A DNA stretch of 64,000 nucleotides from an uncultured virus (IMG/VR IMGVR_UViG_3300045836_000189) (Duplodnaviria; Heunggongvirae; Uroviricota; Caudoviricetes), in the IMG/VR virus record IMGVR_UViG_3300045836_000189, positions 62,001 through 126,000 of that record; one strand, written 5' to 3'. Every line of letters starts with the position of its first letter. Position 1 is the first letter of the stretch. A model generated the notes under the pieces. The model saw only the letters and a program-made list of their open reading frames with translations. It was not told the DNA's origin and did not search any database. A program made the translations under genes and the position numbers. Of the stretch, positions 18,310 to 64,000 are shown in pieces.

Positions 18310-20292
18310 TTATTTCTTCCAATAGGTGGATAGCTCCGGTTCTGCTTTCAGCGGCACCCGTTTGCAGTAGATCTCTCCTGCTTTACACATGGAGGTTCCT
18401 ACCACTTCAGCTATCTGTTCTTTCATGCTCAACGGGCATTCCAGGACGTTTTCGTCATGGACTGTATTGACAAACTTTACTATCCCGAACAGGTTATTGT
18501 CCAGGATATAATCAAAGATGTACACGCAGGAGATCTTGGTGATCTCTGCTGAGGATCCTTGTATTGGGAAGTTCAGTGACTTCCGTTCTATGTCCCCCTT
18601 GTACCTGAAATACTTGCTGACCATTTCCTTCAGGGCCGGGAAGTCCTGTGTCTTCAGGTCCTTGGCCCTGCGGTATCTTTCCCAGAAGTCCTTATCCATT
18701 TTGCTTTCCAGGTCTTTAAACTCCTGGAAGAACGTGATGTAGCTTTTCCTTCTGGTGATGCTATTGATCAGGATGTAACCATCCTTGAGACCCTGTTTCT
18801 TTACCTGATCGAAGTAGGTCTTCAGACCGGGGAATGCCTGGAAATAGGCGTCGTAGATCTTGTTCCCTTCTTCCAGTGTAATGCCCAGGTTCTCCGCTAT
18901 GGTAATGCCCTGACCTCCGTAGTTGATAGCAAATCCTGCTGATTTTGCTGATTGTCTTTTTGCTTTGTGCTTGTCTTTGATCTCGTCCAGTGAGAGTCCT
19001 TCCAGTTCCGGATACATCTTTGAGGCCACGAAGGAGTGCATGTCTGCCAGCCCGTTGTCATAAAACTCCAGGAGGTTCTTATCCATTGCCCGGTTAGCCA
19101 GCACAATCTGTTCCTGGCCGCTGTAGTCAGAAATGATAAGAGTGTTACCATCTTCTGCCACAAAGCAGGCCCGTGTCTCTTTATCCGATGGGATGTTCTG
19201 GAAGTTGATGTTGGTTTCTCCTGTGGCCTTATCCTGTCCTCCGGAAGAGATCCTTCCTGTATCCAGGATCTGTTTGAAGCTGGTATGCAGTCTTCCGGTG
19301 GCCGGGTTGATCTGGTCTATGAAGTTCTGTCCATAGGTGGTAACCACCTTCTCTGCTTTCTTGTACTCCAGATAGAGCTTCACAATGTCATGTGAGTTCT
19401 GATACTTGGAGATTACGGAAGCTTCAATGGATTTTTTCCTCACACCCTTCTCTACCACGGTCACATCCAGTCCGATACTTTCAAACAGCTCGATCACCTG
19501 CTGGGAAGAGCTCCAGTTGATGGTACATCCTACAGGCTCGAACAGGTCCAGCTGTGCAGAGATGAACTTCTGAAGTCCCTTGGTAAGCACCCACTCATTG
19601 AGTTTATCCTCGGCTTCCCTTAAACGCTGGCTGTCCTTGTTCATCTTGAACAGCCACTTGTCCACATCCAGCTTGAACCCACAGTATTCTATGTAGGCCA
19701 GTACCGGAGTGAACCGGTTCTCGATGTTCATGGCACCCATCAGGTCATTTTCACGAAGGATCCTTTGCTGCTCCTCCATGATACGGGGGAGATACTTAAT
19801 ATCATCCGCAGAGTACATGAGTACACGATCAGTGAGTCCTTCTTTTTTGATGTTGGTCCTGATGGATTTATCCAGGCTGACACCCAGATAGCGTTGGGCC
19901 AGTGCGTCCAGGCCAGCCTTGGCCAGCTTATCCCCGCAGTTGATCACCTTCTCGGCCACAAACGTGTCCCAGATCCTGCGTGGATAGATTCCGTGTTTGT
20001 ACAGGTACTTGAGGTCAAACTTGAGGTTCTGGCCTACAATGATCTTGCTTTCCAGATAGGGCTTTAACCAGCTGAGATCCATTCCTGCTGCACAATCTAT
20101 AATATACTGGTCCTTATCATTGCCGATCTGCAGACAGATCAGGTCTTCCCGGTGTGCGTCAAGACCAGTGGTCTCACTGTCCAGGCAGATGGTATCTGTT
20201 GAGTTCAGAAAGTCAATGATATTGTGTTTGTAACAAGGCACTGCTACCTGTGAAGGCACAGTGGTTGTCTGGTTGGAATATAAGAAGATCAT
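18310..20292 (-). CDS. polA: DNA polymerase family A with 3'-5' exonuclease domain
   Basis: ExoI DSETTG, ExoII NLKFD, ExoIII YSADD; motif A DYSGQE, motif B RQSAKSAGFAINYG, motif C VHDE. Confidence 0.95.
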   Translation of the reverse strand: MIFLYSNQTTTVPSQVAVPCYKHNIIDFLNSTDTICLDSETTGLDAHREDLICLQIGNDKDQYIIDCAAGMDLSWLKPYLESKIIVGQNLKFDLKYLYKHGIYPRRIWDTFVAEKVINCGDKLAKAGLDALAQRYLGVSLDKSIRTNIKKEGLTDRVLMYSADDIKYLPRIMEEQQRILRENDLMGAMNIENRFTPVLAYIEYCGFKLDVDKWLFKMNKDSQRLREAEDKLNEWVLTKGLQKFISAQLDLFEPVGCTINWSSSQQVIELFESIGLDVTVVEKGVRKKSIEASVISKYQNSHDIVKLYLEYKKAEKVVTTYGQNFIDQINPATGRLHTSFKQILDTGRISSGGQDKATGETNINFQNIPSDKETRACFVAEDGNTLIISDYSGQEQIVLANRAMDKNLLEFYDNGLADMHSFVASKMYPELEGLSLDEIKDKHKAKRQSAKSAGFAINYGGQGITIAENLGITLEEGNKIYDAYFQAFPGLKTYFDQVKKQGLKDGYILINSITRRKSYITFFQEFKDLESKMDKDFWERYRRAKDLKTQDFPALKEMVSKYFRYKGDIERKSLNFPIQGSSAEITKISCVYIFDYILDNNLFGIVKFVNTVHDENVLECPLSMKEQIAEVVGTSMCKAGEIYCKRVPLKAEPELSTYWKK

Positions 20293-33098: not shown

Positions 33099-34256
33099 TT
33101 AGATGGTGGCCGCTTGCGGCTGTGTGGTAAGTACATCCTCCAGCAAGTCCTCAATCTCTTTCTCTTTCTGCTTTACAGGGTGTCCTTCCAGGATATGGGC
33201 TACCACGGCCTCAACCTCTTCTACCTGGGACTGATCCAGTTTACCTGCAGAAGCATAGCCGGTAAGGAGTGCATCAATCTCTGCCACGGCCTCATCCACA
33301 CTCTGTGCATCATGCAGTGACCACAGCATGTCCGCCTTGCTCATCAGGGCTTTCATTTCCTGGTTCATGAGCTGGGCTGCCAGTTGGTTTCCGGCTTCTG
33401 AGTCAATCATAATCGTAGCCACTTTGACCATGGATTTATCCAGGGTATAGTCCCACACGAATGATACAGCTTTGATCAGTTCAGGAACGAAGGTCAGAGT
33501 CCGGTCAGAGCATCTGTTATAGGCTACGTTCAGGAACTTTTCCAGCTTGGATGTTGGAATGGTTACCCCCTCCATTTCTGCCCTGGTAGGGAGACCGATC
33601 TTCATGGTCTCTTTATACTCTTTGGCACCCCGGTCATAGTAACGGATCATGTCTCCGGCTGAGATCCGGTTCACCTGCATTTTCAGCAGGAACCTGTCCC
33701 AGAAAGGAGAGCCCGCTTCTTCTTTGGGGATCTCGTTACAGGTAGCAATAAAGAGCTTCCATTTGCAGGGGATCTTATGCTTACCATTAAAGAGGAACTT
33801 CTCGTTCATGATAGAGAGCAGTGAATTTCTAATATTACTGCTGGCCTTGTCCACCTCGTTGATGATTACGATCTCTGCCTCTGTGATAGGGGCAATGATC
33901 TCATAACGGGGTTCGGCTCCAAAGAGCTTGGCCATGTCGGGTAATCCTTTGACCTCGCTACTTTTGGTGCCTTCATCTGTTTCCAGGATGTAGATCTTTT
34001 CCATGAACTCCTGCTGTGCCTTTTTCATGGCAGCCACATCTCCTGGAGGTACGTCCTTCAGTAACCAGGCTTTGGCAAAATCAATAACGGTCTTGGTCTT
34101 ACCGGTTCCGGGAGGGCCTACCAGTAATACCGGCTTTTCTGTTGCTCTGGCAAGGGAGAGCATTCTGAACACTTCTTCTTTGTTGATCAGATTGGTGTCA
34201 ATAGTAAGTACGTTCTGTGCTTTATTTTTAGTAAGGGATTTGATAGCTTTTGCCAT
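33099..34256 (-). CDS. MoxR/RavA-like AAA+ ATPase no. 1
   Basis: GPPGTGKT, IINEVDKASSNIRNSLLSIMNEK, ATCNE, FWDRF; start adjusted to MAKAIK (34256). Confidence 0.85.
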   Translation of the reverse strand: MAKAIKSLTKNKAQNVLTIDTNLINKEEVFRMLSLARATEKPVLLVGPPGTGKTKTVIDFAKAWLLKDVPPGDVAAMKKAQQEFMEKIYILETDEGTKSSEVKGLPDMAKLFGAEPRYEIIAPITEAEIVIINEVDKASSNIRNSLLSIMNEKFLFNGKHKIPCKWKLFIATCNEIPKEEAGSPFWDRFLLKMQVNRISAGDMIRYYDRGAKEYKETMKIGLPTRAEMEGVTIPTSKLEKFLNVAYNRCSDRTLTFVPELIKAVSFVWDYTLDKSMVKVATIMIDSEAGNQLAAQLMNQEMKALMSKADMLWSLHDAQSVDEAVAEIDALLTGYASAGKLDQSQVEEVEAVVAHILEGHPVKQKEKEIEDLLEDVLTTQPQAATI

Positions 34257-34323
34257 GATTTCTTGTAGTTGTGTTTGATCTGAATTAGTAGTGGAAACAG
34301 GGGAAGCGTCGTCCCCCTGCTGA

Positions 34324-34890
34324 TTAGAGGTTGAGGAAGCTTTGACCGGCTTCCACGTCAGAATCTTGCTGGGACTCTGATGCAACCAGGCTGTTATCAC
34401 TAATGCCAGCTGATCCAGCCTGGGTACTACCCACACCTGGTTTTGAGGCTCCCAAAGGAAGTACGACTCCGTTGGATTTGTTAGCCTGGGCTGGTAGGTC
34501 AGCACCACTTCCTGAGGATTGGTTGGTCTGCCCAGCTTCTTTAGCCGCTGCTGGTACATTCCCTGTACTGACGGTTGGCTGTTGGCTATCTTTTGCAGCA
34601 TCCCCTGATGGAGTTGCTCCAGTTCCTGCTGCAGGTTTGTTTGCTGCTGATTCCGTATTGTTAGCATTGTCTTTGTCTTTTGTGTCATCAATAATGCGGA
34701 AGATGACTCCTTCCGGCTCTTTACCTACAAGCTTGGGGTGCTTCATGATCACTTTGATCTGGAACTCCTTGGCATTATACTTCTCTTCAATGCTACCGAA
34801 CCCCTGGTCTTCTGCTTTTAGCCAGGTTAAACCGTTACTTAAATCCTCTAATAACTGACTCACAGTCAGATCTACTGGTTTGAATGCCAT
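34324..34890 (-). CDS. Hypothetical protein: folded N-terminus plus long disordered tail
   Basis: ORF track; A/S/G/Q-rich tail ending QSFLNL. Confidence 0.65.
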   Translation of the reverse strand: MAFKPVDLTVSQLLEDLSNGLTWLKAEDQGFGSIEEKYNAKEFQIKVIMKHPKLVGKEPEGVIFRIIDDTKDKDNANNTESAANKPAAGTGATPSGDAAKDSQQPTVSTGNVPAAAKEAGQTNQSSGSGADLPAQANKSNGVVLPLGASKPGVGSTQAGSAGISDNSLVASESQQDSDVEAGQSFLNL

Positions 34891-34910: not shown

Positions 34911-35240
34911 TTACTTTTTGTTAATTAGTTCACTAATCTGGTCATAGAGATCAGGGTTTGCATAGAGTGCCCCTGTGACCTTTCTTAAGAAATCTTTCTG
35001 TTGTTCCTGGGTGGCAGTACGCCAGTCCAGTGATGGTCTGTACAGCTCAAAGAAGTCCTGAAACACCCATTCAGTGAGTTTCTCCTGCTTCTCGTGCTGA
35101 AATAGTCCTCTGCCGTCCTTATGTACCTGTGATTTGGTTACTGTCAGGTACGTTCCATATTTGTTATAATCCTTTCCGTGTGATTCACGGAATTGAGGTT
35201 TGAGCCTTACCCTGTCTCCGGGGTTAAATAGGTATTCCAT
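34911..35240 (-). CDS. Small SH3-like protein with helical C-terminus
   Basis: FNPGDRVRLK start motif. Confidence 0.6.
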   Translation of the reverse strand: MEYLFNPGDRVRLKPQFRESHGKDYNKYGTYLTVTKSQVHKDGRGLFQHEKQEKLTEWVFQDFFELYRPSLDWRTATQEQQKDFLRKVTGALYANPDLYDQISELINKK

Positions 35241-35502
35241 GCTCCAATTGCTTACTTAATTTATCCAGGGCTTCTTCAATCTCTTGTATTGAGTAGTACA
35301 ACTCCAGCTCACCTACATATCCTTTCCATCCCGATTGTTCCGGGAAATCAATATAAACCTTCATCCCAAGTGTACTTATAGTTTCATCAGGAAGTAACTG
35401 CCTTATTACACCCACAGATTTTGCAGTAACACTTCCCCAATCGTGATAGGGATTGGTTGCAATAACACGGACTGTGTCTCCCACTTTAAAGTAAGTTTCC
35501 AT
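35224..35502 (-). CDS. SH3-like (HERC2/KEG-repeat-like) head plus shared C-terminal helix
   Basis: FKVGDTVRV...PYHDWGSVTAKSVGVI...IDFPEQSGWKG...ELEL; tail IQEIEEALDKLSKQL. Confidence 0.7.
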   Translation of the reverse strand: METYFKVGDTVRVIATNPYHDWGSVTAKSVGVIRQLLPDETISTLGMKVYIDFPEQSGWKGYVGELELYYSIQEIEEALDKLSKQLEHGIPI

Positions 35503-35779
35503 CTTTCATCCTTTCTTCTAATAGGTCCAACTTTTCCATGAGATCTTCTATATTGAAGATGTCAAGTTTTTCAAAATAGGAGAGGTCAATCCAGGTATTA
35601 GATGAACTTTCCTCATACTTGAAACTCAGTTTATCCGAACCACCTGAATAGTTATCTTTCCGGATGTCTATAACCGTTACATAAGGCATATAGTCCTTTA
35701 CCCATATGGTGCAGTCCTTACCCTCTCTGTATTTTTTTAGAGGTATGATCCTGTCTCCAATCTTAATGTCACTCATCAA
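35486..35779 (-). CDS. SH3-like head plus shared C-terminal helix
   Basis: IKIGDRI...; tail IEDLMEKLDLLEERM. Confidence 0.65.
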   Translation of the reverse strand: MMSDIKIGDRIIPLKKYREGKDCTIWVKDYMPYVTVIDIRKDNYSGGSDKLSFKYEESSSNTWIDLSYFEKLDIFNIEDLMEKLDLLEERMKDGNLL

Positions 35780-36056
35780 GCATCCTTTCTATCTTTTCAT
35801 CCAAAGACCGGAATAGATCCTCTATGGATGGTCCGACCAGTTCATAATACGCACAGGTCCAGCTACCAGTTCTGCCTTTTGTTTTGAATAACCAGTTACC
35901 CTCGGCATTTTTAATAATCTCAGATATAGTGATACCATTTATCAGCAGATTCTTTACTTCAGGATTTTTAATGGTACTAAACCTTTCAAAATATGCATCA
36001 GGATTTCTCAGCCTGACTGTATCCCCTACTTTAAAAGGAGCTTCATTGTCTGTCAT
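35769..36056 (-). CDS. SH3-like head plus shared C-terminal helix (paralog of 36043-36357)
   Basis: PFKVGDTVRLRNPDAYF; tail IEDLFRSLDEKIERM. Confidence 0.65.
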   Translation of the reverse strand: MTDNEAPFKVGDTVRLRNPDAYFERFSTIKNPEVKNLLINGITISEIIKNAEGNWLFKTKGRTGSWTCAYYELVGPSIEDLFRSLDEKIERMLDE

Positions 36057-36357
36057 TTTCCATCCTCCTTATTTTATCGTCAAGAGCATTAAATAAATCT
36101 TCTATAGTAGGATCAGTAAGCTGATAAAACATGCAGCTAAATCCTCCATTAAATCCATATTCAGCAGGATCAAACCTCCATCTTTCTGACCCTTTTGAAT
36201 AGTAGATTTTTTTTATGGTAACTCCTTCGGTTAAGAGAGATACTTTACGTGCCTCTTTCTTGATATGAGGAAATTCATTAAAGTATTCATCCGGATTAAT
36301 TAATCTGACTTTATCTCCTATGTTAAAAGGAGGCTCACCATTTGATTCTGGTTCCAT
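36043..36357 (-). CDS. SH3-like head plus shared C-terminal helix
   Basis: PFNIGDKVRLINPDEYF; tail IEDLFNALDDKIRRM. Confidence 0.65.
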   Translation of the reverse strand: MEPESNGEPPFNIGDKVRLINPDEYFNEFPHIKKEARKVSLLTEGVTIKKIYYSKGSERWRFDPAEYGFNGGFSCMFYQLTDPTIEDLFNALDDKIRRMENDRQ

Positions 36358-39761: not shown

Positions 39762-40142
39762 TTATGCCTCCTGGTCTTTTTTGATACGTTCCTGTAATTC
39801 CTCAAGAGCTTCTCCTGCAGAAGGGATCTTACCGGCTATATAGTCGGGAGTTCCAATCACAAGGCCCTCTATTTCGGTTGCATCCTGATCCACTACAAGG
39901 CCCCAGCCTAAAGTAAGAATGGAATGAATAAGCGTTTTGTACGGGTCTGCTACAGTAAGCGGATCTCCTGAGTCTGCAGCCTGGAGGCTCAGCTCCTTAT
40001 CTACCTGATACATGCTCAGGACAAGGCAGGCTACTTCCTCACCGGATTTGCCTGTTTGTTTCATTAAGAATTCTACAAACTCTTTTGTACTGATACCGGG
40101 TAATCCCTGGGATTCCACTTGTTCTTTGTTGATTTCTGACAT
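39762..40142 (-). CDS. Hypothetical protein
   Basis: ORF track. Confidence 0.55.
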   Translation of the reverse strand: MSEINKEQVESQGLPGISTKEFVEFLMKQTGKSGEEVACLVLSMYQVDKELSLQAADSGDPLTVADPYKTLIHSILTLGWGLVVDQDATEIEGLVIGTPDYIAGKIPSAGEALEELQERIKKDQEA

Positions 40143-48297: not shown

Positions 48298-48332
48298 AGA
48301 AAGGAGGATTAAGTTCCTCCTTTTTGTTTTTG
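48296..48332. terminator. Bidirectional terminator after the integrase
   Basis: AAAGGAGGA-TTAAGT-TCCTCCTTTTT. Confidence 0.75.
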
Positions 48333-48560
48333 TTCCAGGGTATTCAGGGCTTCCATGATCTGGTCAATGACCGGTGTCTCACGTTTAAGAAAAGTAAAAG
48401 CTTTAACATCCCACATAGGAGATCCGTCACCAGCTTTATAACTCCCAGTATCTTCAATTACTTTGCCCCTGAAGTAGTTTCCTCTTATTTCTTGAACCCT
48501 TACCTTAGTTCCAAGTTTCCCTAACACAATGTCTCCTACTTCAAATGGTATTTCAGACAT
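48309..48560 (-). CDS. SH3-like head plus shared C-terminal helix
   Basis: PFEVGDIV...; tail IDQIMEALNTLEQKQ; start adjusted to MSEIPF. Confidence 0.65.
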   Translation of the reverse strand: MSEIPFEVGDIVLGKLGTKVRVQEIRGNYFRGKVIEDTGSYKAGDGSPMWDVKAFTFLKRETPVIDQIMEALNTLEQKQKGGT

Positions 48561-49320
48561 TGAACTCAACCTCCTTTCTTGAATAATAGGATTTAGCTGC
48601 TCCAAGGAATGCCATGCAAGCAATCTCTGATCTGAAAACAAGTTCTTTAGTATCGGAAGTAAAAGCAGCTTTTTCCATTGACTCTAAGTACAGCTGCTGT
48701 ACAAAATCAAGCTGCGTCATTCTAAGAATTATTTCACTGATCTTGTTGGGGGCACGGCCTAGCTGACCCTTAAAATCAAAATGCTTAAACATAAAGGACT
48801 TATACTCTGATTCTCCTTGCAGCATGTACTGGGGATAATAAAGAGGTCCATTCTGCACATATCGTAGTTTCATTGCCGCTCCTTTCCATCAAGATCCAGT
48901 GATTTGGTGTTAATCATTTCAAAGACATCCACCACATGCCTGGTTTTATCCAGGACACCTTCTCTTAATCCACTCTGAATAGCATCCTTGGGAAAAGTAA
49001 GCCAGGTGGATTTAGGAGTATATCCCCTGGAAACATATTGACCAGTGACCTTGTCACGGATCTTATAGATCTTTTTAACTTTCATCCTTTTGGTTCAATT
49101 CGTCAAACTGTTCTTTGGTAAACGCATAGTGATTGGTAAGACCCCGTTCCCTCTTCCCGTTGATATAATCACACAGGCTCTGGGCCGTGTATTCATCCGT
49201 GCGGAACTGCCAGTTTATGGCTGCTGCTTCTATTTCTTCCGGGAGATTGTGTACTATAGTGAAGCTGCTTCCGTCTGATAGCCGGATCTCCGTTTCAAAG
49301 AATTTCATATCATCCATCAT
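48553..49320 (-). CDS. Three small hypothetical ORFs (48553-48873, 48870-49085, 49075-49320)
   Basis: Overlapping same-strand ORFs. Confidence 0.55.
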
Positions 49321-49378: not shown

Positions 49379-49909
49379 ATGTGCAACTGTAACAAATTCC
49401 TGGTAACACCCGTGAGCTGCAAAAGAGCAGTCTACACAGACTATGTTGCCACCTGCTCTGACTCACCCGGTGCCTTCCTGAAAGAGTCAGCCTGTCCGCC
49501 CTGTACAGACGGGCCGGACATCAATACCCTGGAAATAGACTATCTGAACGCTCAGTGGACCTATCAGATGAGTGCTAACGATACTGGCAGAACCGCACTG
49601 GACTTTTATAACGGGTGGTTTTTACCTTACAAGGCACAACTGGGATTTACAGATAATACGATTTTCCAGATCTATGTAACCTCAGGCAGTTTCAGCCAAC
49701 CTTTGGATGTTACTCAATACAGTCAGGGACCAGTTTCTTTTACTGACTCCAGCGGGAACACTTCTTATACGCTCCAGGGATCTACCGCACCAGGCACTGG
49801 TATGGCCGTTAATATAAACTCTGGCTGGGGAAACTATTCTATTCTGGCAGTAGGTAATGATGGAAAAACAATCATTTTTAACAATATCATAGCCATCTGG
49901 GGCTCTTAA
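49379..49909 (+). CDS. Cys-rich N-terminus, beta-rich protein (paralog A; possible virion accessory protein)
   Basis: MCNCNKF...CPPC; Thr/Ser/Gly-rich body; ends GKTIIFNNII. Confidence 0.65.
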   Translation: MCNCNKFLVTPVSCKRAVYTDYVATCSDSPGAFLKESACPPCTDGPDINTLEIDYLNAQWTYQMSANDTGRTALDFYNGWFLPYKAQLGFTDNTIFQIYVTSGSFSQPLDVTQYSQGPVSFTDSSGNTSYTLQGSTAPGTGMAVNINSGWGNYSILAVGNDGKTIIFNNIIAIWGS

Positions 49910-49920
49910 TCCATATTACC

Positions 49921-50460
49921 ATGTGTAACTGTAACTGTAATCGTTTCGTCATCAGGAAGAACAACAAGTATCTTCCTACCTTTACTAACTATATAGCGGT
50001 TCCCACAGATTGTGCGGATGCATATATAAAGCCCGGAGACTGTCCCGGATGTAACCCTTTGCGTTATGCTGTCCGGGAGGATATGGCAAACCCCGCGTAC
50101 CAGGTGGATACCGGTACTGCTGATGGCATTACCATCAATGCCATGGATATTTACTATGGCCTGTCCGGGAAGTATTACACCCAGATCCAGGTAGACAGCA
50201 GTACAGCCTTCACTTTCTACACCTATCCCGGCACTTATGCACCTACCAAAAGAATTGATACAAGCGTACTTTCTCCGGTAGGGACGATCACCTATTCAGG
50301 TGGGCCTACTATGTCTGCCAGTGACAATGGAGCGGGACAGAGTGTAACCTTAAGCGGGTTTAGTGGGCAGAATGGAAACTTTAGTGTGATCATGTATGAT
50401 CAGAAGCAAGGAAAGGCCATTATCCTCAACAACCTGATCCAGTTTTACCATGAACGTTAA
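49921..50460 (+). CDS. Cys-rich N-terminus, beta-rich protein (paralog B)
   Basis: MCNCNCNRF...CPGC; ends GKAIILNNLI. Confidence 0.65.
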   Translation: MCNCNCNRFVIRKNNKYLPTFTNYIAVPTDCADAYIKPGDCPGCNPLRYAVREDMANPAYQVDTGTADGITINAMDIYYGLSGKYYTQIQVDSSTAFTFYTYPGTYAPTKRIDTSVLSPVGTITYSGGPTMSASDNGAGQSVTLSGFSGQNGNFSVIMYDQKQGKAIILNNLIQFYHER

Positions 50461-50759: not shown

Positions 50760-52013
50760 TTACTTGTTTAATTGTGCATCTGTTTCCGGAGTCACATTGA
50801 TATACTTCCCACCAGTACGCTCACAAAGACTTTTCAGCTCATTGTTAGGTCCGTTGTAAAGAGTGATGGCATTGGTCTTCCAGGTAAGCTTGTCTGTCTT
50901 TACACTATCCTGGCCATCGTTGATCACCAGGATCTCCGGCTGATCTACGGACAGGTCAATGTTCAGATTGAACAGCTTGTGGTTTTCCATGATCTCTTTA
51001 CGGATCCTGTCAATGATGAGTCCCACTTCTGTGTCTCCACCACTGGGGCTATTGTTGAAGTGCTTCCAGAACTCCAGGGCAGTCTCCCGGTTATAGATAT
51101 GATACCATTTAAACGTACCATGCTCCAGGTTGTTTTTGGTCAGGAAGAAGCAGAAGAAGATCTCACACTCTTCCTTGATACAGTAAGATAACCTGTCGGC
51201 CACGATGGACATCACCCACTGTTGTTTCTGTGGGGAGTTCATGGATCCTGAAAAATCCACCAGCATGATGATCTTCTGCTTGGACTCTTCACTTGTTACC
51301 GGGGTGTTGACGATCAGGTCCTTGGTTACCAGTTTCTGGTTGAAGTTGGGCATCATACGCTGATACAGCTGGCTGTTTACCAGCTCACCATATTCTGCCA
51401 TCCTTTTCTGCTTGTGTACCTGGGAGTTGGTCACCCTTCTCTCATGCACCACCTTCTTGATCTCAAAGCTCTTACCGAAGGCTTCCACCATGGCAATCCG
51501 CTGCATCATATCCAGCCTTTTATCAAAGTCCTGCATGTCTGCCCGGTTGTCAAAGAGCTCATTTATAGTAGAAGACTCAAACTGCTCCTCATCCGGCACG
51601 CCAACAAATACCTCTGTGAGGTCTTTCTCCGTCATCTTATCCGGGGAAGGCATAGCTCCGCCCTTTTGTTTCTGCTTCCGCTTCATCAGCATGAGCAGGT
51701 TCATAGCCTTGTCCAAAGGAGAGATGCCAGGAACAAACTTGGTCCTTAAAGCCTCATAGAATCCTTCCTTGGCGTTTGCCCTTTCCAGCTCCTCCGGGCT
51801 TAACTTAGCCGGATCTTTGTATTTGTCTTCCACGATGTCATAGGACATCACCATCTTGTGGTAGAAGAAACGGGCCAGCTCTTTGGCCACATGGGTATTC
51901 TGCAGGTCAAGACCCTTGCGGTGGAGAGTGCTCTCCACCACATAGGTCATTGGGGTCCAGTAATACTCATGTTCCCGTATGTAAAAATCTTCTTGCTTAT
52001 TTCTCAATAACAT
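50760..52013 (-). CDS. VWA (MIDAS) domain protein; partner of MoxR AAA no. 2
   Basis: MLVDFSGSM, SGGDT, LVINDGQD, LKSLCERTGGKY. Confidence 0.85.
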   Translation of the reverse strand: MLLRNKQEDFYIREHEYYWTPMTYVVESTLHRKGLDLQNTHVAKELARFFYHKMVMSYDIVEDKYKDPAKLSPEELERANAKEGFYEALRTKFVPGISPLDKAMNLLMLMKRKQKQKGGAMPSPDKMTEKDLTEVFVGVPDEEQFESSTINELFDNRADMQDFDKRLDMMQRIAMVEAFGKSFEIKKVVHERRVTNSQVHKQKRMAEYGELVNSQLYQRMMPNFNQKLVTKDLIVNTPVTSEESKQKIIMLVDFSGSMNSPQKQQWVMSIVADRLSYCIKEECEIFFCFFLTKNNLEHGTFKWYHIYNRETALEFWKHFNNSPSGGDTEVGLIIDRIRKEIMENHKLFNLNIDLSVDQPEILVINDGQDSVKTDKLTWKTNAITLYNGPNNELKSLCERTGGKYINVTPETDAQLNK

Positions 52014-53136
52014 CTTGGATCTCCTTCAGTTTAGATTGTAAGAATTTTTCATAACCGGATACGCGGCCACTGATCTGTTTCATCAACTCGTCATCCACCT
52101 TCTTGGCTTTCAGGGTCTGAATATCCGCATGGATCTCTTTCAGTACCACTTTGGCACGACGAACATTGTCCAGGGAATTCAGGGTAATACCGTTAGCTTC
52201 CTTGATGTTACCATCAATTTTAGCTATCAGGTCCTCAATCACCTGTACATTTTTGTACTTGGAGATCTCAGCATCCACCAGGGATTTATTCTTGCCAGAG
52301 AAATCTGCCATGAACTTCAGGCCGCCCATATCACCACCAGTCTTCTCCAGGATACGGGCTGCTTTAATGGCAGTACGCGGAGAAACCACGGTTCCGTTCT
52401 GAGCCAGTTTTTCCATGATATAAGAGAGCTGGCTGAATGGCTTGCCGAACATTTTGTTGAACATGAAGGAATAAGTATCCTTAGTGTATGCATTCCACTC
52501 TACTTTATACTCTAAAGGAAAACGCTCCATGAGGGCCTTCAATGAGTCATTCTTGGTGAACTCTTCACGGGTCTTGTTAGTACAGCACACGATAAGCTTG
52601 GTCTTGATCTCAAATACCTGTGTACCGTTACGGAACTTACCGGAGGTCAGGATGTCTTTTAACTGTTCCAGGATATAATCCGGAGCATCCATCAACTCTT
52701 CAAAGATCACGTACTCAAAGTTCATGAAAGAGTTTTCTACCAGGAACTCCAGGGCACCTGTGTCATTGAACTTCTTGATGTCAATGCCACCAAACAGGGA
52801 ATCGGTAGTAGTCCCGCTACCCATTGTCTTTACAAACGGCTCAATACCTTTTGATTCAAAGAAGTATTCAGTGAACTCTGATTTACCGTGACCGCCTTTA
52901 CCAAACAGGATGATATTCTCTCCGGTCAGGAGTGCCAAATCAAGGGCCTTGTTCAGATCTTCCATGAACACGAACTTGGTAGGATCTGATTTGGTTTTTG
53001 GAGCAGCAGCAGGAGCTTCTGCAGGAGCAGGAGTTTCTTTTCCGGTTTCAGCTTGAGCTGATTTGTTTTTTAACATGCTTGGTGCTTTGATAGCCACACC
53101 ATTGGTTTTCTTTACTGCTGTTTCAGTGGTACTCAT
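51997..53136 (-). CDS. MoxR-like AAA+ ATPase no. 2
   Basis: GKGGHGKS, VIFEELMDAP, CCTN, ALMERF, SPRTA; start adjusted to MSTTET. Confidence 0.85.
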   Translation of the reverse strand: MSTTETAVKKTNGVAIKAPSMLKNKSAQAETGKETPAPAEAPAAAPKTKSDPTKFVFMEDLNKALDLALLTGENIILFGKGGHGKSEFTEYFFESKGIEPFVKTMGSGTTTDSLFGGIDIKKFNDTGALEFLVENSFMNFEYVIFEELMDAPDYILEQLKDILTSGKFRNGTQVFEIKTKLIVCCTNKTREEFTKNDSLKALMERFPLEYKVEWNAYTKDTYSFMFNKMFGKPFSQLSYIMEKLAQNGTVVSPRTAIKAARILEKTGGDMGGLKFMADFSGKNKSLVDAEISKYKNVQVIEDLIAKIDGNIKEANGITLNSLDNVRRAKVVLKEIHADIQTLKAKKVDDELMKQISGRVSGYEKFLQSKLKEIQDVIEK

Positions 53137-53170
53137 GATTTTTGTGTTGATTAAATAGTGAATTATTTTG

Positions 53171-53455
53171 TTAACTGTTTTTTGCTTGTAGCTGTAAAGC
53201 CAGCTGGTCAAGGGCTGACTCAATTAGAATAATAGTGTCGGAGAGGGAATCTTTAGCAAGTTCTCTCCAGTAGTAACGACCTTCCTGGCCGTCCTCCCAG
53301 CGGACTTCTGCACCTATATCGGAGATCCATTTTGTGATGATCCCCTTTTTACCCTCTCCTCTCTTGGTTCGGTCGTTGCTGGATTTTATTCCTTCCTCAG
53401 AGATGATAACCTTTGTTCCTACCGGACCAGTACTTTGGGTAAGGTGCTTAGACAT
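53171..53455 (-). CDS. SH3-like head plus shared C-terminal helix
   Basis: VGTKVII...GIIT...EVRWEDG...Y; tail IILIESALDQLALQL. Confidence 0.65.
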   Translation of the reverse strand: MSKHLTQSTGPVGTKVIISEEGIKSSNDRTKRGEGKKGIITKWISDIGAEVRWEDGQEGRYYWRELAKDSLSDTIILIESALDQLALQLQAKNS

Positions 53456-55054: not shown

Positions 55055-55357
55055 TTAGTCCTCATCATAGAGGATAGTGAACAACATTTTTTCTTCTAAC
55101 TTCTCCAGCCCCGCATCCAGTTCACCGAAGATGCTGTCCAGGCTGGACATTGACTCATTATTGGCCCATTCCACACGGTATCCCTTTCCCAGTTTTTCGT
55201 TATACTTCTTGTCCCAGTCATCTATGTGATAAGTGTATTTGGTTCCGGCAGTACCTACTTTTCCGTAGGTTGCCACGAACTGATTTCCACTAATCTCTTC
55301 CATTTCATAGAACTTATGACTGGAACCGTCCTTAAAAACGAGTCTTGCTTTTTTCAT
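55055..55357 (-). CDS. WGR-domain protein plus shared C-terminal helix
   Basis: SSHKFYEM...ATYGKVGTAG...EKLGKGY; tail LDSIFGELDAGLEKLEEKM. Confidence 0.8.
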   Translation of the reverse strand: MKKARLVFKDGSSHKFYEMEEISGNQFVATYGKVGTAGTKYTYHIDDWDKKYNEKLGKGYRVEWANNESMSSLDSIFGELDAGLEKLEEKMLFTILYDED

Positions 55358-55890: not shown

Positions 55891-56946
55891 TTATACCATG
55901 AACCGATAAGGAGCTGTGAATTTCAGGACGATCTTATGGAATGGAGGATCGTCTGTCTGACTACCATTGTACTCAATAAGCAGGTCTTTCTCTTCCTGAG
56001 TAACTTTACATTCAGCAAGCCTTACCTGGCAGCGGTAATTATTTACTTCCGGTTCTATATCATTATCTGCATCAAAGCCCTCTGGTAATTTTGGATACTT
56101 ACTACGGTTAAATAAGAACATTTCGGTATCCCCGGATATTTCTACAAAGGATTGCCACTCCCACTTGCCGTCTACCAGCTCATTTACTTCGTATCTCCGA
56201 TTGGTGCTCTCCAGGTTCAGGTGGGCAGCACAGGCTATAGCATCTTCATTAAAAAGATTCATCTCTTTAATAAGATTTACCAGCAGGTCAAACGTCTGCA
56301 TGTTGGTTTTCCGGAAAAATTTAAAGATGGAAGCCTTGTGTGCTTTGTTTACCAGCAAGTCATCTATTACTTCATTCATAGTGGCTTCATCCAGATCCGT
56401 GTAATCCTTACGGTATTTAACCCTGTTTAGCCTGTTCATGAGGAAGTTATTGATCTTCATCTCATTAACAGTCAGCAGGAATATAAACCGGGTAGGATAG
56501 TTCCCATCCATCAAAAGAAGTAAATCATTACTCTTATCACCATTGGGATAGATCTTTTCAAATTCATCAATGAAGATGATAGCATCCGGATACTGGGTCA
56601 GGTAGTCAATAAAGTCACTACCAAAGAATGGTTCAGTAATCATGATTACCGGCTTACCGGAATCAATACAGAACTTCTGGGCAGTAATGGTTTTACCAGA
56701 GCCTTTTAGTCCGGAAAGAATGATACCCATGTTTTTCTCCGAGTTGTGCTCGTATGATTTCATCCACCGCTCAATAATGCTTTGGTCTCCGTAAATTTTT
56801 TTAGGGAGTCTGAAATTCTCTTTCTGCACCAGGTAGTAACCATCCCTGGGATCAAACTTCAGCATGTAATTACCCGGAGGCAGGGAATCATGAGTGTTGG
56901 ATACGTTTGCTGTCTTAAAGACACCATTTGATTCAATGATTTTCAT
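55891..56946 (-). CDS. AAA+ ATPase no. 3
   Basis: GLKGSGKT, IFIDEFEK, LLLLMDG, LTVN, NRLNRVKY; start adjusted to MKIIES. Confidence 0.85.
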   Translation of the reverse strand: MKIIESNGVFKTANVSNTHDSLPPGNYMLKFDPRDGYYLVQKENFRLPKKIYGDQSIIERWMKSYEHNSEKNMGIILSGLKGSGKTITAQKFCIDSGKPVIMITEPFFGSDFIDYLTQYPDAIIFIDEFEKIYPNGDKSNDLLLLMDGNYPTRFIFLLTVNEMKINNFLMNRLNRVKYRKDYTDLDEATMNEVIDDLLVNKAHKASIFKFFRKTNMQTFDLLVNLIKEMNLFNEDAIACAAHLNLESTNRRYEVNELVDGKWEWQSFVEISGDTEMFLFNRSKYPKLPEGFDADNDIEPEVNNYRCQVRLAECKVTQEEKDLLIEYNGSQTDDPPFHKIVLKFTAPYRFMV

Positions 56947-57042
56947 ATAATTATCTGTACGGATTAATGGAGTGACAAAACAATAGCCGGTAGCGGTCAC
57001 CACCGGCTATAAATAGTTTAAATGATGGTTAGTGTTACAGGC

Positions 57043-59628: not shown

Positions 59629-59719
59629 GTTCTTTTAAAGATTGGGTAAAAATAATAAGATTCTGTAGAATACCAAAAAACTTCTACAGTTTAAACCTAA
59701 AAAATTTGTAGAGTTAGGC

Positions 59720-60139
59720 TTATTTGGACAGCTCTTTCACCAGCCTGTCAATGATTTGCTCAGAGGTTTCACCGGCCTCATTCTGGAAATGCTCTACAAG
59801 AATCCGGTCTTTCAGATCCTCTACGTCTACATTTTTTCCAGCAGCCTGGAAATTCGGAGTATAATATCCTTGTTCATCTCTGCTGTATCCAAATCCGGTT
59901 ACCTGAACATCTTTAGTGGTGAATGCTTTTACAAAAGCTGCTTTGGTATCTTGTACTTTTTGAGCGGCAGCCTTAATTACAGCTTTTTCATCATCCACAG
60001 CTTTCTTATAAGCTTTATACTCTTTTGAAGACTGGTAGCTTTTCTTTACAGCTTCCACATTTGCTCTCTGAGCTTCTTCAATTCTGTTTTTTACTTGGTT
60101 AGCTAAGGCTTTAGCTACGGGTACGGTTAACTTTTTCAT
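59720..60139 (-). CDS. Hypothetical Lys/Ala-rich protein
   Basis: ORF track. Confidence 0.6.
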   Translation of the reverse strand: MKKLTVPVAKALANQVKNRIEEAQRANVEAVKKSYQSSKEYKAYKKAVDDEKAVIKAAAQKVQDTKAAFVKAFTTKDVQVTGFGYSRDEQGYYTPNFQAAGKNVDVEDLKDRILVEHFQNEAGETSEQIIDRLVKELSK

Positions 60140-60173
60140 TTTGGTTTTTTAATAAGAATGGATTATTAATTAG

Positions 60174-60515
60174 TTATTTCAGCTGTTCAGCTAATTGGTC
60201 AAGAGCTTTGTCAATTTCCTCTATATAGTTAGTAGCATAAGAGAGGGCCTGAAACCTCTTACGGCAATAGTATCCGGCACCAAGTCCCAGGTTCTCATCA
60301 TTGGTGATATTATCCCAATGGACGTATACAATGGTTCCTTTTTTCTTTTTTCCAAATGTATTTTGGTCTACATAGTTCGGACCTATGGCTGTGATGGTGC
60401 CCTCCGTAACGTTGGCATAATGACCAGTGAAATATCCGGGAGCTTTCCCCCAGTCTGGTCCTTTTGTTACCCGGTCTCCAATACTTGCTTCCGGGGCATA
60501 AACAGGCTTGTTCAT
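60174..60515 (-). CDS. MIB/HERC2-like head plus shared C-terminal helix
   Basis: IGDRVTKGPDW...GTI...VHWD; tail IEEIDKALDQLAEQL. Confidence 0.7.
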   Translation of the reverse strand: MNKPVYAPEASIGDRVTKGPDWGKAPGYFTGHYANVTEGTITAIGPNYVDQNTFGKKKKGTIVYVHWDNITNDENLGLGAGYYCRKRFQALSYATNYIEEIDKALDQLAEQLK

Positions 60516-60811
60516 GATTTTTGTAGTTTTTCTTCCAGCTTATCAAGGGCTTCTGTGAGTTCATCCAGGGACGGAGGTTCATCAAGGTAATACAGGTCAT
60601 AATAACCAGCATGTCCCACTCTGTAATTCCAAATAACCTTGGAGCCTTCCCACTGTACATCTGCCCAAAAGCCTGTACTAATTGATTCGCTCACAAGGGT
60701 GCCTGTTCCTGTACCTCCTCCATGTATATCCTGGTCACCCCATTCCCAGTCTCTACCCCGTTTTACACGAGCTCCTTTCCTGTAGTTCTCAGGAGTTACC
60801 GGTATCTTCAT
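60512..60811 (-). CDS. MIB/HERC2 domain plus shared C-terminal helix
   Basis: GARVKRGRDWEWGDQD..GG..GT...DVQWE...NYRVG..G.YDL; tail LDELTEALDKLEEKL; start adjusted. Confidence 0.8.
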   Translation of the reverse strand: MKIPVTPENYRKGARVKRGRDWEWGDQDIHGGGTGTGTLVSESISTGFWADVQWEGSKVIWNYRVGHAGYYDLYYLDEPPSLDELTEALDKLEEKLQKS

Positions 60812-61106
60812 CACTGCTCCTTTCCAGCTTGGAAGCAAGCCTGTTCAGAGCAGCTTCAATATCCTTAAACTCTACTTCGGGGTAGATCAGAGGAATCTTT
60901 CCAGACTTTATCTGGTACCCTGGCCATATCCCTTTGGCAAGCTGTGGAAATCCTTTCCATTTTACCTGGATGATTTCTGAGTACTTGTGGATCTCTACAA
61001 TCCTGCCCTTTTTTACTCCTTTAAACCGGGAATCGTGAGGTCCCCAGTCCGGACCGGGAGCCACTATGTCTCCAATTTTGGCAGTATTAACGTTAACTGG
61101 TTTCAT
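60789..61106 (-). CDS. MIB/HERC2-like head plus shared C-terminal helix
   Basis: IGDIVAPGPDW...QVKW; tail FKDIEAALNRLASKL. Confidence 0.7.
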   Translation of the reverse strand: MKPVNVNTAKIGDIVAPGPDWGPHDSRFKGVKKGRIVEIHKYSEIIQVKWKGFPQLAKGIWPGYQIKSGKIPLIYPEVEFKDIEAALNRLASKLERSSDEDTGNS

Positions 61107-61407
61107 GATTTATCCTTTCTTGCTTTTCAATGAGTTTCTCCACTTCCTGGAATAAGGTTGTTAAATCCTCTGTAGTTGAATCATAGACTGACAGTTCGTA
61201 TTTTCCCGCCGCTCCAATTCGGTAAGAATAGTTGAATCCTCCTGGTTTCCACCTCACATCAGCATACCATCCGGCAATGTCATCACATACTTCGGTAATA
61301 ATACCATACTGACTAACACCAACGTGATGATTCTCCGAATGATTCCAATCAGGGCCTTTGCAGACTTTCATGCCTACAAAAGCATTTTCATGCGTCACCT
61401 TTTCCAT
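61093..61407 (-). CDS. MIB/HERC2-like head plus shared C-terminal helix
   Basis: VGMKVCKGPDW...DVRWKPG...SYRIGAAGKYEL; tail LTTLFQEVEKLIEKQ. Confidence 0.75.
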   Translation of the reverse strand: MEKVTHENAFVGMKVCKGPDWNHSENHHVGVSQYGIITEVCDDIAGWYADVRWKPGGFNYSYRIGAAGKYELSVYDSTTEDLTTLFQEVEKLIEKQERINHETS

Positions 61408-62009
61408 AGAACTTTACTCATCAGATACAGTGTTTCTATAAATATCCTGGGGATACTCAGCAGGAACTTCTTGATCTTCCTGGGAAGACGTAGCAGCCAG
61501 GCTATCAGGTTACCATGCTTTTTACCCAGCATGATGTCTGCCTGGATCTGGTCCAGTCCATCCATGATCTGTTCAATGGTCTCCTGTTTCTTCTCCACTG
61601 TAGATTCAGATACATCTTCTGCTGGAAGGGTAGCACCTGTGTAAACAGGTTTTGAGAAAGAGGAAGATTTACCATGTGCAGCCAGGAAGTTATCTTTGTA
61701 TTCCTGCCATTGATCCACGGTTGGGAATCCTTTTCCAGGAGAAAGTTCCTGTTCATAAACATGCCTTAAATCATGCCGTGAACTGAGTCCTGTTCTATAT
61801 TTAGCTGACTTTCCATTATCCCATTCTACTTCACAGTACAAGCCGTTCTTAAACACAATAACAATAGTCCCCATGGTTCCGGGAAGCATCTCATATATAG
61901 TGAAGGGAAAGTCAAAAGTGGTATCCCTGAACCAATCGGGGCCACCCGCCATTACTCTTAGTCCGACTCTTACTTCATCATAGCGTACAGGATCTCCTGG
62001 TTTTAACAT
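61395..62009 (-). CDS. MIB/HERC2-like head, internal shared helix and basic amphipathic C-terminal extension
   Basis: VGLRVMAGGPDW...GTI...EVEWDNGKSAKYRTG...HDLR; IEQIMDGLDQIQADI; LIAWLLRLPRKIKKFLL. Confidence 0.7.
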   Translation of the reverse strand: MLKPGDPVRYDEVRVGLRVMAGGPDWFRDTTFDFPFTIYEMLPGTMGTIVIVFKNGLYCEVEWDNGKSAKYRTGLSSRHDLRHVYEQELSPGKGFPTVDQWQEYKDNFLAAHGKSSSFSKPVYTGATLPAEDVSESTVEKKQETIEQIMDGLDQIQADIMLGKKHGNLIAWLLRLPRKIKKFLLSIPRIFIETLYLMSKVLWKR

Positions 62010-62335
62010 TGGTTTCCTCCTTTCTGCTCTGCCACTTTAAGCAGGAGCAGATCCAGATTAAAATAGATTTGTTCAATAACAGGGAGCTGCTTCACCAGAT
62101 TCCTGGGAAGGTCTCTAATGGATACCTTGAAGTACTTATTCTTCCTGTTATTCTTACAGCCCCAGGCATACTTGATTTCTTCAAACCTGAGTTTTTTGTT
62201 GTGTGTGATCTCTTTAACTGTCAGCACCTGTCCCGGCTTTACCCAGGACTGCTCACAGTCATTTAGTATTTTGATTTTGCAGCCTATAAGGGACTGGCTG
62301 ATTTCAGGATGGATAAGATCTTCATAAGTAGCCAT
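62003..62335 (-). CDS. SH3-like head plus shared C-terminal helix (paralog of 62338-62646)
   Basis: LIGCKIKILN...GQVLTV...WGCKNN; tail IEQIYFNLDLLLLKV. Confidence 0.65.
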   Translation of the reverse strand: MATYEDLIHPEISQSLIGCKIKILNDCEQSWVKPGQVLTVKEITHNKKLRFEEIKYAWGCKNNRKNKYFKVSIRDLPRNLVKQLPVIEQIYFNLDLLLLKVAEQKGGNQC

Positions 62336-62337
62336 AA

Positions 62338-62646
62338 TTAACTCAGTTTATCTTCTAGCCGCTCCAGATGAAGTAGTATATCATCCATCAGCGGTGAGAG
62401 TGCTTTATCAATATGTTTTAACTCATAGATCATCTCCTGACCTTCCAGTACCTGGAATAATTTTCTACCGGAGTTATTGGCACATGACCAGTAACGGCCT
62501 CCTATTTCCTTGATACCCAGGTTCTTTGACCGGTATCCGGAAACAGTATAGATCTGTCCATTCTTCAGGCGTTCAAACCCATTGTTGTTCAGGATCAGGA
62601 TCTGTTTGCCTATTAACTCCCTGCAGGCATCCGGGAAATAGCTCAT
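62338..62646 (-). CDS. SH3-like head plus shared C-terminal helix
   Basis: LIGKQILILN...GQIYTV...WSCANN; tail MDDILLHLERLEDKL. Confidence 0.65.
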   Translation of the reverse strand: MSYFPDACRELIGKQILILNNNGFERLKNGQIYTVSGYRSKNLGIKEIGGRYWSCANNSGRKLFQVLEGQEMIYELKHIDKALSPLMDDILLHLERLEDKLS

Positions 62647-62756
62647 GATGATTGAAATTGAATACAGTACTAAATGGTAAAGCATGACAGACCAAACCTG
62701 GAGAGGAGTGGATATTACTACCCCTGTGTCCCCATTAAGCCTGCCATGCTTATGTC

Positions 62757-63116
62757 CTACTTCTTTGCTTTCAAAGCTTCCAGTTTCCGGTTCAGCAGAT
62801 ACTTGGCCACTGGTTCATAAGCACGTAAAAGCACATAGTGAACCATCCCCTGGATAGCACACATTATAAAGGCCGTAAACAAGAAGTTGTACAGCCAGTA
62901 GTGTGATACTACCACCACAGGGAGATCGCTCGTCAGAAGCAGGATAAACACGCACCAGTGGCCAAAGCACCAGGGACAGTGAATCAGGTCTTCTATCTTT
63001 TGATTGAGAGGGCTGATCCACTCCCGGAATGGTTTGAAGATACCGGTGGATGTGACGGTGAAGGAGATGGAAGCACAGCATAGTGCTCCCATGACCAGGA
63101 ATAGGAACTCTTTCAT
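62757..63116 (-). CDS. DUF1360-like membrane protein
   Basis: IFKPFREW...LIHCPWCFGHW plus hydrophobic segments. Confidence 0.65.
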   Translation of the reverse strand: MKEFLFLVMGALCCASISFTVTSTGIFKPFREWISPLNQKIEDLIHCPWCFGHWCVFILLLTSDLPVVVVSHYWLYNFLFTAFIMCAIQGMVHYVLLRAYEPVAKYLLNRKLEALKAKK

Positions 63117-63117
63117 G

Positions 63118-63420
63118 TTATATTACCTCATCAGCTTCTTCAAGGCCATCTTCCGAAATCCGGTCCCCATCCTGCAGATCTGAGTCTTCAGGGACTTCCC
63201 TTAAGATCTCAAAGTCTGATCCTCCACATCCACAACCTGAGTACACCACCAGCCTTACTTTGCGGGTCTTTGGCATATAAGCTCCCAGAATGTCCTCTAT
63301 ACTCATCTCTTCTGCCTTTTTGATCACAGGAGCTTTTTCCTGTTCCTTGTGGAACTCTTCTCTCAGTTGGGCCAGGTTGTCCTTCTCCTGACCGGCTTTA
63401 CGGTTTTTAAGCTTTTGCAT
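63118..63420 (-). CDS. Small acidic protein with CGCGG motif
   Basis: YSGCGCGGS; overlaps the ATPase stop codon. Confidence 0.6.
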   Translation of the reverse strand: MQKLKNRKAGQEKDNLAQLREEFHKEQEKAPVIKKAEEMSIEDILGAYMPKTRKVRLVVYSGCGCGGSDFEILREVPEDSDLQDGDRISEDGLEEADEVI

Positions 63421-64000
63421 AACTTGAGTTTATTAATTTGATTGATTCTTCCAGGTCTGCTGCAGTAACCCCCTTAGGAGTTTTCTTGGTAGTAGTCATC
63501 CTGGTCAGGGCTTTGCGTACAGCACCTTTGGCAATGGCTTCCACCATAGCTCCCGATACTTTACTCTTACAGGGAAGACTAAATAACATATCAGCTCCTT
63601 TGATGGCCAGGTCTTCTACCTTGTCATGGCATTTTACCTTCTTAAGGTGGATCTCAAAGATCTCCTTGGTATCCGGGTGATCCGGACGGTTGATGCCAAT
63701 CTTCAAGTCTATCCTTCCTTCCCGGACAATAGCCTCATCCAGTGCATTAGGGAGATTAGTGGCCAGGATGAAGATGGGATTGTGCTCTTTTTCCAGTCCG
63801 TCCATTTCTGAAAGGAACGTAGGCACAATGGTCATCTCCACGTCTGATGATTTACCGCTGCCTCTCTGACGGAGCAGGGCTTCTGCTTCATCCATGAATA
63901 CAACTGCACGCTGGCCGGTCTTTTTACAGTACTGGCGGGTAGCATGGAACATGTGGGCTACTTTCTGCTCTGCCTCACCTACGAACTTACTCAGCATCTC
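63407..64000 (-). CDS. ARC/Mpa (proteasomal-type) AAA+ ATPase, C-terminal part; 5'-truncated by the window edge
   Basis: SKFVGEAE pore loop, VVFMDEAE Walker B, RGSGKSSDVEMTIVPTFLSEMDG, ATN...LDEAIVREGRID.KI.I.RPD, SGAMV. Confidence 0.8.
   Translation of the reverse strand, partial: EMLSKFVGEAEQKVAHMFHATRQYCKKTGQRAVVFMDEAEALLRQRGSGKSSDVEMTIVPTFLSEMDGLEKEHNPIFILATNLPNALDEAIVREGRIDLKIGINRPDHPDTKEIFEIHLKKVKCHDKVEDLAIKGADMLFSLPCKSKVSGAMVEAIAKGAVRKALTRMTTTKKTPKGVTAADLEESIKLINSSYAKA

Follow-up and report, generated by a model that had tools for sequence, protein, structure and literature searches.

In Actinobacteria, the Pup-proteasome pathway is described as being driven by the motor ARC/Mpa. In Mpa, a 30-residue helix of Pup binds antiparallel and the disordered N-terminus of Pup enters the pore (PMC8755798). 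The ARC of Corynebacterium glutamicum is reported to disassemble complexes without a 20S core (PMC12288473), and mpa-like matches are mentioned for Prevotella isolates (PMC5613308).

A stripped-down version of this motor is widespread in uncultured phages. The phages that carry a short ARC/Mpa-like ATPase range from about 60 kb to 460 kb, with no tag ligase or protease and with two conserved cysteine-bearing partners. The example considered here lies at the end of the window, the whole 64,000-nucleotide stretch of DNA that was analyzed. The window comes from a phage contig of 136,295 bases, on which terminase, portal and capsid genes are present. The ATPase heads a three-gene phage module and is likely a proteasome-free protein unfoldase. 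The three genes are as follows.

63407-64000, minus strand: 3' half of the gene for the short ARC/Mpa-like AAA ATPase, with both signature motifs and the C-terminus SSYAKA
63118-63420, minus strand: small CGCG partner of 100 aa, overlapping the ATPase stop and matching no known family or fold
62757-63116, minus strand: DUF1360-like small membrane protein of 119 aa, with invariant C47, C50, H53, R31 and T20

A short ARC-related ATPase

The full ATPase gene extends past the window end (G000:C1:125407-126576, equivalent to window positions 63407-64576) and encodes 389 aa from an ATG or 417 aa from an upstream GTG; the alignments of homologues begin at the ATG. In the structural model (pLDDT 89), a helix at residues 15-37 (23 residues), with conserved hydrophobic residues at 18, 21, 25, 28 and 32, is followed by a five-strand beta-barrel at 41-97 and the AAA module. 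The N-terminal helices are predicted to pair as coiled coils. The model contains neither a beta-grasp extension nor a second barrel, and the protein has a single AAA domain, with both a tandem AAA domain and an M41 protease domain absent. A Foldseek search with the model gives mycobacterial Mpa in the best eight rows and 26S Rpt subunits next, and it is on these whole-chain matches that the identity of the barrel as an OB domain rests.

The motor is intact. All 44 aligned family members share K164, D229, E230, N274, R285, R288 and the pore-loop G200, such that by sequence the Walker A/B, sensor, both arginine fingers and the pore-loop glycine are invariant in the short family. The chain stops directly after the last helix, with no conserved C-terminal docking motif and no GQYL, and an HbYX-like (hydrophobic-aromatic-X) C-terminus is found in 0 of 119 homologues. 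The best 120 database matches are 350-421 aa long, several of them on contigs of 130-140 kb or 320-390 kb; generic AAA patterns used as search queries returned mostly unrelated ATPases.

Among NCBIfam models, TIGR03689 (ARC) scores best with 231 bits, followed by PAN (171), CDC48 (167) and FtsH (123). The ARC score is below the curated cut-off of 504.75 bits, and true PAN references reach 224-229 bits on TIGR03689 and 475-495 on the PAN model, so the evidence is the ranking of the models rather than the TIGR03689 score. A tree built from 62 AAA domains places the short family in one clade (100/99), sister to long forms of 427-607 aa from phages and CPR genomes (100/99). Short and long forms together group with two actinobacterial ARCs to the exclusion of PAN, CDC48 and FtsH (95/97), in a tree anchored by those two true ARC sequences, a third, frameshifted ARC having been dropped, and with PAN labels verified for three of six. 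The motor is in all probability ARC/Mpa-related. Given that it falls under the cut-off, has one barrel and lacks GQYL, it is taken as ARC-derived rather than as a member of ARC.

An earlier note, made from the window alone, had called the gene a proteasomal ARC/Mpa-type ATPase, and the tree, the model ranking and the top Foldseek rows agree. Both ARC/Mpa signature motifs are present in the 63407-64000 ORF, and the resemblance named there holds because a Streptomyces ARC fragment carries the matching stretch ([23 protein letters not shown]). The absence of GQYL from the SSYAKA end was also correctly read, and the ARCs compared do end in GQYL. The note had named an N-terminal coiled coil and OB domains as features to look for beyond the window. 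A coiled-coil-like helix is predicted at 15-37 of the full-length protein; of the OB domains one barrel is found, and the second one of ARC/Mpa is absent. The outcome that the note had set against its own reading, a protein that lacks a coiled coil and groups with FtsH or CDC48, did not occur.

Compared with ARC/Mpa, the phage ATPase retains the order of N-terminal helix, beta-barrel and AAA, the ARC-type inserts and signature, and an aromatic-hydrophobic-Gly pore loop (KFVG in the phage protein), in addition to its tree position and best fold match. It differs in length (389 aa rather than 575-587), in having one barrel rather than two and a shorter helix, in the absence of the beta-grasp extension and GQYL, and in being phage-encoded, partnered by CGCG and DUF1360-like genes, in a genome without Pup, PafA, Dop or 20S. 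Archaeal PAN and the eukaryotic Rpt subunits resemble it in size and single-barrel architecture and are its next-best fold matches, but the phage ATPase groups with ARC, scores far below PAN references on the PAN model and has no HbYX end.

Models for Pup (PF05639), 20S (PF00227) and PafA/Dop (PF03136) gave 0 matches in the phage genome, the host genome being outside the search. No ligase or 20S gene was found in five of five other records, and no protease gene lies near any ATPase locus read. The earlier note had also suggested a look for a neighboring protease, PafA or Dop gene, and the absence of a proteasome, PafA and Dop from the genome is consistent with a proteasome-free, ligase-free setting. 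The C. glutamicum ARC is likewise an ARC motor without a 20S core, but it still employs Pup, PafA and Dop, whereas the phage genome has no ligase (PMC12288473).

Long-form ATPases occur in other surroundings as well. In the cultured Brevundimonas phages Strzyga and Polewnik, an ATPase belonging to the long group is annotated as proteasome-associated (L330:2566-3978), and that of Strzyga has no adjoining cysteine partner. In three CPR genomes (L101, L103 and L104), a long ARC-like ATPase heads another gene cluster without a cysteine partner, in which OmpA-like and ABC-transporter-like genes were recognized by eye.

Two cysteine-bearing partners

ATPase patterns yielded 87 loci, of which 21 were without a family match and 7 PAN-like ones were dropped; the 45 short-type loci fall into 24 lineages (clusters at 90%). 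The CGCG gene directly follows the ATPase in 20 of the 24 lineages, and the DUF1360-like gene is near it in 19 (17 by pattern, 2 by eye). The three-gene module is also present in a 462-kb phage. Three lineages (L267, L270 and L275) lack the CGCG gene despite downstream DNA, and the fourth miss ends before downstream DNA. The three genes very likely form one unit. No description of the module or of the tails discussed below was found in the open literature searched, and annotation tables in subscription journals or supplements could list the family.

The CGCG protein has a low-complexity N-terminus rich in K/Q/E/S, a helix at 3-29 in the model, and a beta-hairpin domain with CGCG at its tip. 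Its family comprises 226 clusters, the 150 listed all being 57-126 aa long, and the motif is 97-99% conserved in 142 aligned sequences, 70 of which read CCGCGC. At E 0.05 it matches no Pfam or NCBIfam model, those for Pup and UBact included, and it has no GG[EQ] end; Foldseek with its model finds nothing at E 0.001 in PDB or BFVD. Look-alikes with a beta-grasp fold from the ESM Atlas were set aside, given that the source model has a pTM of 0.33. A complex prediction for two ATPase chains (11-389) and the CGCG protein scored 0.03 against a mark of 0.32 in a run without folded controls, and counts neither for nor against binding.

Long-form loci have a comparable neighbor: 10 of 14 adjoin a gene for 59-107 aa composed of a loose N-terminus, a helix and a C-terminal CxC, one of which reads SLIDEIDELL, to be compared with AILDEIDEVL in Pup. 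A membrane gene is found by pattern in 6 of the 14. The CGCG protein resembles Pup in layout only, with a loose N-terminus, then a helix, then a linking motif. It and the long-form partners have cysteines where Pup has GG[EQ]; the short-form motif lies within the chain rather than at its end.

The DUF1360-like protein carries CxxCxxH, and its membrane topology was read by eye. It shares with DUF1360 (PF07098) the character of a small, CxxC-bearing membrane protein, but the match (E 0.0037, 17.7 bits) is under the Pfam cut-off of 21. Its ESM Atlas neighbors (0.91-0.93) include DUF1360 in 14-50% of members.

Shared C-terminal tails

At lower window coordinates than the module, many small ORFs end in a common helix with the consensus I-[ED]-x-I-x-x-[AN]-L-D-K-L-E-x-K-L. 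The carriers noted in the window are listed here; unless stated otherwise, they were called by the tail profile.

62338-62685, minus strand: tail-bearing mini-protein, 29.5 bits
60789-61106, minus strand: tail-bearing mini-protein whose head clusters with the MIB_HERC2 ones
60512-60838, minus strand: MIB_HERC2 (SH3-like) head with tail, by domain match and tail profile
60174-60515, minus strand: tail-bearing mini-protein whose head clusters with the MIB_HERC2 ones
55055-55357, minus strand: WGR domain with tail, by domain match and tail profile
53171-53455, minus strand: tail-bearing mini-protein
48309-48641, minus strand: tail-bearing mini-protein
39762-40142, minus strand: borderline tail-bearing ORF, lowest score (19.7 bits)
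36043-36357, minus strand: tail-bearing mini-protein with a weak SH3_15 match
35486-35779, minus strand: tail-bearing mini-protein
35224-35502, minus strand: tail-bearing mini-protein

In this phage (G000), 15 of 715 ORFs end in a tail; the sister strain G022 has 17 among 711 ORFs, and the closest relative, G001, has 24 among 359. The scores behind these counts include the training set. In a cross-genome test, a profile built from 12 tails of this phage matched 12 of the 359 ORFs of an independent phage and, across 12 other phage records, 1 of 4,276. The joint profile matches 0 of 75,083 internal windows; the motif is always C-terminal, ending 0-11 residues before the stop, with a folded head in front. 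The carriers in G000 and G001 are 81-127 aa long, and within each genome they share one strand. That the tails reflect a DNA or RNA element was considered and rejected: synonymous codon identity is 0.40 where 0.38 is expected, and 0.62 where 0.57 is expected, and the tails are conserved as protein rather than as DNA. The tails, which the earlier note had called shared, are more than chance.

The 56 tail proteins fall into 28 head clusters, including MIB_HERC2 and WGR heads. In other phages a related WGR leads a protein of about 400 aa, and the single one scanned carries a PARP domain; given that the WGR head is here followed by the tail, the tail is regarded as a portable module. It would serve as a mobile address of 15 residues, carried by many early proteins that are otherwise unrelated.

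The closest relative has four tail genes inserted between its CGCG gene and its DUF1360-like gene (L098:10729-11825), so that tails and module are physically interleaved there. Against window positions 59700-62700, the sister strain (L091) has core genes of 95-100% identity and a different content of tail genes, with an additional tailed gene after the DUF1360-like gene and several heads of 42-54% identity. A 530-aa ORF at G000:C1:133175-134767, 463 aa in the sister strain, appears by eye to be a string of these same small barrel heads, lacking the tail.

Proposed mechanism and alternatives

In short, the ATPase would act as a proteasome-free unfoldase with the CGCG protein as its handle and the membrane protein as its anchor, the tails being separate. 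By sequence, the catalytic residues of the motor are all in place. From what its family does, it would assemble as a hexamer in which the N-terminal helices pair and capture a helical tag. From its layout, the CGCG protein may bind these coiled coils through its helix, its loose N-terminus pointing to the pore. The CGCG tip could then couple to CxxCxxH, most simply by a shared metal ion or a disulfide, such that the DUF1360-like protein, the likely anchor, would hold the motor at the inner membrane, where it would pull apart membrane-associated complexes early in infection. In the zinc clasp of CD4/CD8 and Lck, one zinc is bound jointly by the CxC of one protein and the CxxC of its partner; this is an analogy for the coupling only and implies no homology. 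A probability of about 0.45 is assigned to the mechanism as a whole. Weighing against it are the ATPase helix, which has 23 residues where the Pup partner in Mpa has 30 and carries a mild negative charge of its own (family mean -2.4), the absence of any Pup or UBact match for the CGCG protein, the three lineages without the CGCG gene, the other neighbors of the three CPR long forms, and the intervening tail genes of the closest relative. At about 1.8 kb in all, the three genes could be co-expressed, which would make AAA targeting without pupylation and the role of DUF1360 directly testable.

The earlier note had proposed that the tails could be a genetically fused, Pup-like handle, which would bring many heads and their targets to the ATPase. 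That role is improbable. Tails are found only in records with the ATPase (G000, G022 and G001), and none of the 8 near-complete relatives without it has any; the longest contig of a WGR-tail protein and that of a family ATPase are each 16,431 long, and both the variety of heads and a WGR head on which a tail has replaced the usual C-terminal enzyme fit such a handle. Yet tails are near the ATPase in only 2 of 24 lineages (2 of the 12 that have 10 kb or more of flank), and there are 0 tails in four further ATPase-bearing records, one complete and three 37-51% complete, in counts across records that leave ORFs spanning 20-kb joints uncalled. The two tailed lineages are mutual closest kin (capsid 82%) and have in common 22 genes absent from 8 others, three further AAA+ ATPases among them, so the co-occurrence of tails and ATPase is not independent. 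A search for tail-bearing phages apart from the ATPase, by vWA, WGR and tail alignment, gave no new readable tailed genome. The Pup helix from Nonomuraea scores above 99.3% of its own shuffles and 98.5% of natural stretches on the tail profile, but at 2.3 bits against a threshold of 14 and at least 19.7 for real tails, and on the sequence comparison the resemblance is a generic amphipathic likeness. The tails have a near-neutral helix of about 15 residues (mean charge -1.7 per 19 residues, against -11 per 28 in Pup) in place of an acidic one of about 30, have no GG[EQ], and follow a folded head, the reverse of the threading layout of Pup, with its disordered N-terminal threader (PMC8755798). 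The CGCG protein directly downstream of the ATPase, which the earlier note missed, is the likelier Pup-like handle, its binding to the motor being predicted from its layout.

The tails are more probably a portable docking helix that this phage clade uses separately from the module, read by another factor. The following pair is a candidate for the rival reader.

50760-53223, minus strand: MoxR-type ATPase (51997-53223) and vWA-like gene (50760-52013)

The vWA-like gene has a DxSxS motif read from the sequence and no Pfam match. It is more likely than not that the tails are read by this MoxR/vWA pair or another hub, or that they cap and stabilize each small barrel. Across the 15 records read, the two MoxR ATPases and the vWA-like gene match the occurrence of tails exactly as well as the ARC-like gene, although a more distant MoxR/vWA locus (L341, 17 kb) is without tails; a purely structural cap is disfavored by the presence of the tail on both SH3-like and WGR heads.

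Three other readings concern the module itself. The ATPase could feed a host or phage protease (HslV, ClpP or similar) without GQYL, leading to degradation rather than remodeling, given that ARC and PAN normally serve proteases and that HslV-type subunits occur in several host groups (controls); the lack of a protease gene near the loci read and of a conserved docking motif, in a family that stops after its last helix, makes this unlikely. Cysteine tagging, in which the membrane protein would attach the CGCG protein via CxC as a disulfide or thioester and the ATPase would unfold the targets, fits the near-invariant cysteines on both small genes, the absence of PafA and the position of the long-form CxC at the very C-terminus, the conjugation site of Pup. 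It is nonetheless unlikely, since the motif is internal in short forms, CCGCGC in 70 of 142 looks more like metal binding, and a reducing cytoplasm disfavors stable disulfides. A further one is a ligase-free, proteasome-free descendant of the Pup system in which the CxxCxxH protein would tag targets with the CGCG protein by way of its cysteines, the ARC motor would unfold them and the 15-24 tailed mini-proteins of this clade would serve as interchangeable target-finders, an improbable combination that, if true, would mean that such a descendant is phage-spread.

Phage genome and host

The nearest cultured or named matches of the phage are distant, with a Leptolyngbya phage record at 28% and crAss-like and Cellulophaga phages at 22-28%. 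A Shine-Dalgarno-like site precedes only 5 of 65 larger genes, and scarce Shine-Dalgarno sites are a property of Bacteroidota. A Bacteroidota-type host, the label given in the earlier note, is plausible, and the scarcity of these sites fits it without proving it.

Two MoxR-type ATPases, the vWA-like gene and a further AAA gene (window 33099-34691, 50760-53223 and 55891-57003) recur only in G001 and G022 when all capsid relatives read are compared; in G022 the AAA gene of 55891-57003 is only 68% identical. The DNA polymerase (window 18310-20292) has no BLAST match in G001 or eight other capsid relatives, which suggests polymerase replacement. Two tandem paralogues starting MCNCN (window 49379-50460, plus strand) lie beside an integrase, on the strand opposite to the early region.
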